From a virus (Duplodnaviria; Heunggongvirae; Uroviricota; Caudoviricetes), in IMG/VR virus record IMGVR_UViG_3300021399_000137, positions 5,938-69,937 of that record: DNA of 64,000 bases; one strand, given 5' to 3'. The position numbers and the translations under genes are program-made. The notes under the pieces were generated by a model that was not told the origin of the DNA, searched no databases, and saw nothing but the letters and a program-made list of their open reading frames with translations. How positions within the stretch are numbered: the first letter of the stretch is position 1; each line of letters begins with the position of its first letter. This document shows positions 55,256 to 55,721 of the stretch, one piece after another.

Positions 55256-55324
55256 CTTTATATAAATCCTCCTATTTAATTAAACCTTATTATTATATTA
55301 TGACATCTTTTTCTAAGATAAGAG

Positions 55325-55400
55325 ACAAACCCTTTATCTCACCGTGGCGAAGCCACGGAACTAGGGCGGGCGAGAGATGGAGAGCCCGCCACCTCGCTAG
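55325..55400. other. Cluster of three GC-rich hairpins in an AT-rich intergenic region
   Basis: CCGTGGC-GAA-GCCACGG, GGGCGGGC...GCCCGCC, CCTCGC-TAG-CGAGG, consecutively. Confidence 0.6.
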
Positions 55401-55535
55401 CGAGGGTTTATATCTCTCTCTATTTATTTAAATTTATTTATAAATAGTTATTTATAGGATTTTTATGAGTCACCGATTACTTTAATACCAATGAACTCAT
55501 GAACTAAAATTTTCACCACGTTTACCGGTTTGTCG

Positions 55536-55603
55536 CTCACATTAGCTTTTTCTGCACCTCCACATTAGCATGTTTTGCACTCACATTAGCATGTTTTGCA
55601 CAG
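55536..55603. repeat. Three ~22-bp direct repeats (iteron-like)
   Basis: ctcacattagctttttctgcac, tccacattagcatgttttgcac, tcacattagcatgttttgcac in tandem. Confidence 0.65.
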
Positions 55604-55721
55604 AATTGGCCTGATAAAAGACTAAATCTATAAAGTTTAGTCTTTTATCTTTTTACCTATAGAAGTTTCTTTTTCTTCTAAAAATCTATCATTAATATTT
55701 ACTATCTCTGCTAACATTGGG

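Follow-up and report, generated by a model that had tools for sequence, protein, structure and literature searches.

What is the function of the intergenic region at 55256-55650 in the phage that carries it? The region lies within a 64-kb window (the whole stretch of DNA analyzed, 64,000 nucleotides, 27.5% GC), which belongs to a metagenomic contig of 118,646 bp; the host replicon is an uncultured phage of ~119-120 kb with a GC content of ~27%. A 380-bp gap separates two minus-strand ORFs, 55722-56216 and 54356-55255, and the minus strand holds all ORFs of at least 90 aa found in the window, except one overlapping 102-aa ORF on the + strand. A sequence-only reading had singled out the gap as a candidate origin, on the basis of three GC-rich hairpins and three tandem repeats located upstream of a winged-helix gene. 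The comparisons reported here make it probable that 55256-55650 is the vegetative replication origin of the phage, forming one unit with its initiator gene. The assignment follows from the known three-part design of such origins, in which iterons, an adjoining AT-rich array of short repeats and a winged-helix initiator encoded in cis are found together.

The window was compared to seven distinct, syntenic versions of the locus of metagenomic origin (L006, L008, L009, L075, L078, L079 and L082), retrieved by protein searches and contig look-ups. Duplicates were merged (L006 = L007 = L045; L075 = L076; L079 = L080; L082 = L083), and L050 is close to L009. The recombinase encoded near the locus is 96% down to 48% identical to that of the window across these relatives. 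Contigs P0013, P0006 and P0033 end in or just before the initiator gene, and contributed no intergenic sequence. The search of IMG/VR with the recombinase alignment yielded only relatives at 24-29% identity, and the scan of the same collection with the initiator protein yielded none. The eight-sequence initiator alignment was too divergent to serve as a seed for further locus searches. DNA pattern scans of JGI metagenomes and GTDB genomes gave 57 matches; two are real (L045 and L050), the rest are chance matches. The locus has no nucleotide match in 50,697 deposited phage records (megablast and blastn), and tblastn of the initiator against the annotated phage collection returned only matches at 25-35% coverage, in Fusobacterium and Bacteroides phages.

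The features of the region are as follows, in gene-sense order:

55613-55649, minus strand: hairpin terminator of the upstream ORF 55722-56216, a 14-bp perfect inverted repeat with a terminator-like call
55516-55601, minus strand: iteron array, copies at 55582-55601, 55561-55580 and 55538-55557; gene-sense unit GTGCAAAACATGCTAATGTG
55480-55493, gene-sense: box 1, CATTGGTATTAAAG, between the iterons and the AT array
55465-55476, gene-sense: box 2, TCGGTGACTCAT, between the iterons and the AT array
55420-55459, no strand assigned: AT-rich stretch of short repeats (TAAATAAATT and TATAAAT variants), 40 bp, 7% GC
55405-55421, minus strand: lead-in, AGAGAGAGATATAAACC, nearly invariant within the clade of the window
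55342-55405, no strand assigned: cluster of three GC hairpins, all stems perfect
55392-55405, + strand reading: hairpin A, CCTCG-CTAG-CGAGG, 5-6-bp stem
55365-55390, + strand reading: hairpin B, GGCGGGC-12 nt-GCCCGCC, 7-bp stem
55342-55358, + strand reading: hairpin C, CCGTGGC-GAA-GCCACGG, 7-bp stem
55320-55335, minus strand: 3' arm of the closing stem, AAAGGGTTTGTCTCTT, kept in L006 and L008, replaced in L009
55305-55319, no strand assigned: AT palindrome ATCTT-AGAAA-AAGAT, found by folding, directly upstream of the promoter-like motif
55285-55305, minus strand: promoter-like motif TGTCATAATATAATAATAAGG, a variant of GCATAWTATAAT, which precedes the initiator gene in all eight versions
54356-55273, minus strand: ribosome binding site (55268-55273) and putative initiator gene, ORF 54356-55255 (299 aa)

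The iteron unit is 20 nt long. The sequence CACATTAGCATGTTTTGCAC is found unchanged at 55561-55580 and 55582-55601, and with three mismatches at 55538-55557, at intervals of 21 and 23 bp; 55516-55537 may hold a fourth copy, degenerate in sequence. Three matches compare with 0.00 expected (100 shuffles), and none occurs elsewhere in the 64 kb, which confirms the tandem repeats noticed previously. TRF assigns them a period of 21 and 3.0 copies.

The AT array is located ~60 bp from the last iteron, the two boxes lying in between. The stretch, placed between the hairpins and the iterons, had not been mentioned in the sequence-only reading. When non-overlapping 40-mers of the 64 kb are ordered by instability, it comes ninth (top 0.06%). 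Against it, an AT-rich 40-mer is not unique at 27% GC, and eight others are equally or more unstable. We propose that 55420-55459 is the DNA unwinding element. Both boxes (55465-55493) are recognizable in most of the aligned relatives, unlike the sequence that surrounds them, and have approximate cross-version consensus sequences TATTGGTAT and GGAGACTCAC. They feature neither sigma-70 spacing nor a DnaA box, and possibly correspond to a host-factor or helicase-loading site. No DnaA box (TTATCCACA) with one mismatch or less was found in the region of the window, and the matches present in two relatives are isolated and non-conserved; IHF sites conserved in the window and relatives are similarly missing.

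Upstream, the region is delimited by the terminator at 55613-55649, the A- and T-tracts of which belong to the stem, so that it could act in both directions; L075, L078 and L082 each have a counterpart hairpin in this position. On the opposite side, TGTCATAATATAATAATAAGG probably acts as promoter, as judged from its distribution: eight of the nine GCATAWTAT matches in the window are on the coding strand, mostly 19-25 nt upstream of start codons. The AT palindrome next to it is a possible operator. At the same position a different palindrome is found in L008 (ACTTTT-AA-AAAAGT), and L009 and L079 have others.

All eight versions display the same gene-sense order, i.e. terminator, 3-5 iterons, boxes, AT array, hairpin(s), promoter-like motif and initiator gene, with the ribosome binding site between the GCATAWTATAAT motif and the gene. 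The position of the iteron array is conserved in all seven relatives, each with 3-5 copies of a sequence particular to that phage. TRF detected 2.9-5 copies with 21-22-bp periods in the window and in six of the relatives; the copies of L009 are looser, and were found by eye. The AT array is the least stable intergenic 40-mer in each of the eight versions (0-20% GC), and is invariably built from 10-14-bp units, such as TATAAACTAATA, tandemly reiterated 1.9-3.5 times. The hairpin(s) that follow the array start right after ...ATAAACCC in all versions.

ORF 54356-55255 matches the Pfam HTH_36 family at 39.7 bits (cut-off 25), and more weakly RPA_C and DnaD_N. In PHROG it matches families of replication initiation proteins, O-like proteins and DnaD-like helicase loaders at 1e-9 to 8e-8, and the initiator matches extend into the C-terminal domain. 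No match to Rep_3 was obtained, and the comparison of the initiator profile with PDB sequences returned nothing meaningful. Two winged-helix halves are predicted in the protein, together with an acidic, repetitive linker and a helix domain conserved at the C-terminus. The earlier description of a winged-helix gene carrying periodic repeats is correct, since, besides the HTH_36 match, TRF reports two tandem repeats at 54516-54683, one of 9 bp x6.6 and one of 60 bp x2.2 (score 215). The true origin could thus reside at 54516-54683 inside the initiator gene, as in lambda and SPP1, the upstream repeats serving otherwise: the array is strong, and its position in the linker between the DNA-binding and the C-terminal domains is that of the iterons in lambda. 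Yet the in-gene repeats code for a (V/I)EK linker that is of low complexity, varies in length and is modeled with low confidence, and they are flanked by neither an AT-rich array nor a hairpin. L078, L079 and L082 lack them and L075 has them in weak form, while upstream arrays occur in all eight versions. An origin within the gene is therefore very unlikely. The initiator-family matches, and a layout kept in eight of eight versions despite changes in iteron sequence, support the intergenic region as the candidate origin.

Downstream of ORF 54356-55255, on the same strand, are found genes for a UvsX-like recombinase, SbcC-like and SbcD-like proteins, an exonuclease, dCMP deaminase and thymidylate synthase, as well as for a Toprim primase and a clamp loader. 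The initiator-like gene thus stands at the head of a replication module. Toprim is the sole type of primase found in the 64-kb window. As a UvsX-like recombinase is encoded, replication may be largely primed by recombination rather than at the origin. The check suggested earlier, GC skew, did not add support. All 1-kb bins have negative skew, the cumulative curve declines monotonically past 55 kb, and neither at 55.3-55.6 kb nor elsewhere within the 64 kb is there an extremum. With genes that share one orientation, skew is governed mainly by coding direction and, given also the recombinase, says nothing for or against an origin.

The sequence of the iterons varies among phages, although members of the closer group share 75-96% identity in the neighboring recombinase. 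This divergence tracks that of the initiator N-terminal domain (residues 1-90, hereafter N-domain). Iterons of L075 and L078 are identical at 18 of 22 positions, and their N-domains at 72%; the figures are 14 of 20 (aligned by eye) and 63% for the window and L006, 14 of 22 and 48% for L078 and L009, the iteron score of the latter pair corresponding to the 99th percentile of the shuffle null (10.5 +/- 1.2 matches). For most other pairs iterons are near the shuffle null, and N-domains 17-55% identical. The pattern is most evident when the window is compared to L008. Flanking genes are ~90% identical, the hairpin/promoter block 76-78%, the second winged helix 75-92%; iterons are only 36-45% identical and N-domains 40-50%. 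Two hypervariable islands set in conserved DNA are expected if a DNA-binding domain and its sites switch specificity together, and they provide the strongest indirect evidence that the initiator N-domain reads the repeats.

Terminase and ParB/ParR sites are tandem repeats with bendable AT-rich DNA nearby, and the array might accordingly be a packaging (pac/cos) or partition site used by another protein, lying beside the initiator gene by chance. The array follows the N-domain of the initiator in its divergence, however, and neither a terminase nor a partition gene adjoins it, the neighbors being replication and recombination genes; such a role is highly improbable. It is also unlikely, to a lesser degree, that the repeats are operators, the winged-helix protein being chiefly a transcriptional regulator of itself or of an origin-region transcript, and the hairpins its terminators. 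Any specific binder should have a DNA-binding domain that varies together with its sites, and some hairpins did receive terminator-like calls (see below). Nonetheless, ~230-300 bp separate the repeats from the promoter-like motif downstream of them, a distance that includes the AT array and the hairpins; reading of the sequence near the motif revealed neither an iteron copy nor a half-site; and no conserved sigma-70 promoter was found from the iterons to the hairpins, in the window or in the relatives. Moreover, the PHROG matches are specific to replication initiators and reach the C-terminal domain, and the gene heads a replication module. Iteron initiators commonly both initiate replication and regulate transcription, and a regulatory function would not be exclusive of an origin.

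The three GC hairpins described by the sequence-only reading are genuine, having perfect stems and a fold that shuffled sequences do not attain. The DNA fold of the 71-nt block has an energy of -22 kcal/mol, versus -11.6 +/- 2.1 in dinucleotide shuffles (z = -5); the value was not matched by any of the 200 shuffled sequences, and the two strands behave alike. The block includes the most GC-rich 60 nt of the 64-kb window (0.70, exceeding tRNA genes), which directly abut one of its most AT-rich spots. The cluster is single-copy in the window and in every relative locus examined. Scanning IMG/VR for hairpin C gave only three chance matches, in GC-rich contigs, and scanning for the conserved lead-in gave none. 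A tRNA-like element was considered and dropped, as neither ARAGORN nor the tRNA model calls the cluster.

The number and size of the hairpins found after the AT array vary among relatives. Three are present in the window, L006 and L008, two in L009 and in L079, and a single 5-bp hairpin in L075 (CCCAT-TTC-ATGGG) and L078 (CCCAC-AAG-TGGG); L082 features one long AT/GC hairpin unrelated to those of other versions. In the minimum free energy fold of the region, the end of the lead-in, AAACCCT, is able to pair with AGGGTTT at 55320-55335, giving an outer stem that encloses the three hairpins. In single-hairpin relatives the position of the lead-in is occupied by the same hairpin, AAACCC...GGG(N)TTT. 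As the outer AAACCCT...AGGGTTT pairing persists around the cluster, the three GC hairpins look like the enlarged loop of an ancestral hairpin, and the cluster like a lineage-specific enlargement of the one small hairpin present after the AT array in other relatives. Ranging from one 5-bp stem to three 7-bp stems, the hairpins are not an essential, fixed part of the mechanism. Terminator-like calls were obtained in the window for hairpin A only, and only on the + (antisense) strand; in the relatives they concern L079 (7 T) and L075 in gene sense and L078 in antisense, T-rich flanks being expected on both sides in this genome.

The hairpin block is kept in L006, L008 and L009, and hairpin C retains all seven pairs in the clade. 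The block could be a structured RNA, either an sRNA or the 5' leader of the initiator mRNA, folded as a four-way junction and working as a regulator or as a replication primer. Consistent with this, the minus-strand fold has z = -3.4 over 321 nt, with the closing stem enclosing the three hairpins, TATAAA is found directly upstream of the first hairpin, and among the four phages that keep the block hairpin C shows one compensatory change, from GC to AU in L009. Overall, 92% of stem cells are paired, compared to 37-55% with slid partners, though with four sequences shuffle controls are not decisive. Other data are against an RNA. Rfam 15 found only three tRNAs in the window at gathering score, and the best match over 55200-55750 at E <= 10 has E = 1.2, far under its threshold. 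The structure is lost beyond the closest clade (only a 5-bp hairpin remains in L075 and L078, and that of L082 is unrelated), and the seven T residues after the first L079 hairpin would stop any transcript short of the gene. In L008 the loop of hairpin C is flipped to its complement (CTTCG to CGAAG), a change more readily expected of a DNA palindrome, symmetric between strands, than of an RNA loop that depends on its sequence, and wobble or mismatch positions in the stems of L008 and L009 favor neither strand. On balance, an RNA role for the block is improbable.

As a working view, a stable hairpin beside the unwinding element would mark its boundary and insulate the initiator promoter. On the + strand, hairpin C reads GCGAAGC. 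This mini-hairpin motif has been reported from N4 promoters, from the complementary-strand origin of G4 and, in the form CCGAAGG, from RSF1010 ssiA (PMC13037366, PMC8567376), and the resemblance is a lead. A hairpin promoter of the N4 type was discarded, the GAA loop being antisense in most relatives and flipped in L008, and is further disfavored by the lack, in the window, of a giant virion RNA polymerase. More speculatively, the cluster might be a single-strand initiation signal of a dsDNA phage, shaped as a cloverleaf-like four-way junction closed by AAACCCT/AGGGTTT. After melting of the AT element, the displaced strand would fold into the hairpins, that with GCGAAGC included, which would keep SSB off and direct the Toprim primase to the site of the first primer. 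In an RNA version of this reading, a structured origin transcript is the primer or regulator. This is doubtful, but if true, a priming device of the RSF1010/G4 style would have been grafted onto an iteron origin of the lambda style.

For the origin with its initiator we infer the following sequence of events; binding, melting, helicase loading and any role of the hairpins are deduced by analogy. The terminator would close off the upstream gene. The product of ORF 54356-55255 would bind the three or four 20-nt iterons, set two helical turns apart, with specificity supplied by the variable N-terminal winged-helix domain. The resulting nucleoprotein complex would melt the adjoining 40-bp, 7% GC array, acting as unwinding element, and the helicase and the phage Toprim primase would be recruited at the melted array, possibly through the conserved C-terminal domain of the initiator. 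Beyond the array, the GC hairpin cluster would represent a thermodynamic and/or transcriptional boundary, keeping melting and stray transcription out of the initiator promoter. In single-stranded form the hairpins, stable and SSB-resistant, may in addition serve priming.

The locus provides a candidate pair of origin and initiator for a clade of uncultured, ~120-kb low-GC phages, which carry a T4-like portal, a UvsX-like recombinase and a sigma-like factor of their own, and have no cultured relative in the phage collection searched. Related metagenomic phages can have their origins annotated from this succession of parts: a terminator, 21/22-bp repeats, an array of AT repeats, a hairpin and the initiator gene. 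The type of origin is well known, the novelty residing in its occurrence in a new phage group, and the understanding of how iteron origins work is unchanged by this locus. Two points are in our view worth following up, the co-variation of domain and sites and the enlarged hairpin cluster. As to the former, separate hypervariable islands in near-identical genomes are a clean natural case of origin-specificity switching, and point to the protein domain that reads the repeats.

In lambda ori, four iterons of 18 bp adjoin a segment of 38 bp that is highly AT-rich (PMC3349717). The locus described here similarly combines iterons with an adjacent AT-rich candidate unwinding element. In lambda O the N-terminal domain binds the iterons and the C-terminal domain recruits the helicase, and in lambdoid phages iteron sequence and O N-terminus vary together. 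The same co-variation is observed here. Neither lambda nor SPP1 needs DnaA, and the present locus lacks conserved DnaA boxes. Lambda ori, however, is inside gene O, whereas the region analyzed here is intergenic, upstream of the initiator gene. The initiator shows no detectable homology to lambda O beyond matches to PHROG O-like families at ~1e-7 and, unlike O, features two winged-helix halves; a GC hairpin cluster of this size has no lambda equivalent.

Closely comparable is SPP1 oriL, whose repeats and AT-rich unwinding element have been called the 'classic signature' of an origin (PMC5737612). AB-box repeats, bound by the non-AAA+ replisome organizer G38P, lie there beside the AT-rich element in a layout like the one found here, and theta replication is followed by recombination-driven synthesis of concatemers, which the UvsX-like gene near the present locus would fit. 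SPP1 oriL is embedded in gene 38, in contrast to the upstream location seen here. The G38P family is pfam09524 (PMC5737612), a Pfam family other than that of the initiator described here, and no hairpin cluster has been described for oriL.

A further parallel is with the locus organization of plasmids. In iteron plasmids (RK2 oriV, pPS10, R6K, F, P1), iterons of 17-22 bp are arrayed in tandem along one face of the helix, next to an AT-rich region of short repeats with an adjoining GC-rich segment, and a Rep protein with two winged helices is encoded beside the origin. Tandem iterons, AT-rich short repeats, GC-rich segment and two-winged-helix initiator in cis are all found here. Unlike in those plasmids, a Rep_3 match, an inverted half-iteron operator at the promoter and DnaA boxes are missing, and the replicon is a lytic-type phage of ~120 kb.

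Similarities with single-strand initiation systems concern the hairpins. The oriV of RSF1010 (IncQ) also has iterons bound by its initiator, and its unwound region exposes stable hairpins that are single-strand initiation signals for a primase of the replicon; the stable hairpins of the present locus might be exposed likewise. The GAA-loop mini-hairpin of ssiA reads CCGAAGG (PMC8567376, PMC13037366), and that of hairpin C GCGAAGC. RSF1010 ssiA and ssiB are two 40-nt inverted repeats on opposite strands, recognized by the RepB' primase encoded by the replicon; the only primase found in the 64 kb of the phage is Toprim/DnaG-like, and the hairpins number 1-3 according to the relative and show no pairing on opposite strands. 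The complementary-strand origin of G4 has three adjacent stable hairpins, recognized by DnaG, one of which contains an SSB-resistant mini-hairpin of the GCGAAAGC type (PMC13037366). G4 is, however, a ssDNA phage, its hairpins act on the packaged ssDNA, and neither iterons nor an initiator gene accompany them; the resemblance is confined to hairpin number and loop type. The parts by which iteron-type origins are recognized, tandem repeats, an AT-rich unwinding element and a winged-helix initiator encoded in cis, are all represented, by sequence and predicted fold, at the locus described here.

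At the candidate origin, the conserved box with the iterons on one side and the AT array on the other (55480-55493 in the window, with equivalents in the relatives) reads (C/T)AAAG(T/C)ATTG(G/A)TAT and is similar to the E. coli IHF consensus YAANNNNTTGATW, which is matched exactly only in the related contigs L009 and L050, and is one base off in several other relatives. The shared GTAAAAC core of the iterons is found on the opposite strand in the relative L008 (3650-3745) compared with the other relatives, and the array of this phage appears inverted relative to the gene. Five independent short contigs of relatives (L084-L088) all end inside the initiator gene, a likely result of assembler failure at its tandem repeats; such breaks restrict the number of intergenic regions that metagenomes can yield.

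Mini-hairpins were also observed in L001 (IMGVR_UViG_3300028027_000182), an unrelated viral contig of 50% GC. The run at 1250-1600 includes the types CGCGGCAAAGCCGCG and CCGTGGCGAAGCCACGG, with other palindromes in between, and is a repeat array built of mini-hairpin motifs.

GCATAWTAT, or a near variant, is found at the initiator gene in all eight versions of the region. The window holds nine matches (4.1 +/- 2.1 expected), eight of them on the coding strand. In these eight, the 9-mer starts at the following positions:

18289, 35688, 38338, 41109, 45429, 54341, 58641, 62045, minus strand, motif matches

A start codon follows 19-25 nt downstream in five matches, and one match is located 51 nt upstream of tRNA-Gly. 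The motif resembles a promoter or a processing signal specific to the phage. A small ORF of the window matches Sigma70 region 2, and this match suggests a phage-encoded sigma-like factor:

38802-39362, minus strand, small ORF, match to Sigma70 region 2

Two neighboring tRNAs are called in the window:

33326-33396, minus strand, tRNA with anticodon UUA (ARAGORN call; Rfam tRNA model, 47 bits)
33476-33551, minus strand, tRNA-Met

The first would read the UAA stop codon, and a phage suppressor tRNA of this kind may be a sign that stop codons are recoded in some genes, though the ORFs of the window appear intact with the standard code. The GC-rich segment at 33419-33480 (maximum 0.60 per 60 nt), directly adjoining tRNA-Met and outside every tRNA call, may be a further small RNA or the remnant of a tRNA.

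Among the other genes, two adjacent ORFs match the GroEL-like chaperonin family PHROG 5725, and a 660-aa ORF matches a T4-like portal:

60152-60538, minus strand, ORF, match to PHROG 5725
60676-61515, minus strand, ORF, match to PHROG 5725
24060-26042, minus strand, 660-aa ORF, match to T4-like portal (Gp20)

The chaperonin ORFs match different parts of the family (profile positions 19-281 and 382-463), and may represent a single split or interrupted gene. The phage joins a lambda/DnaD-style initiator with T4-like morphogenesis and recombination genes.
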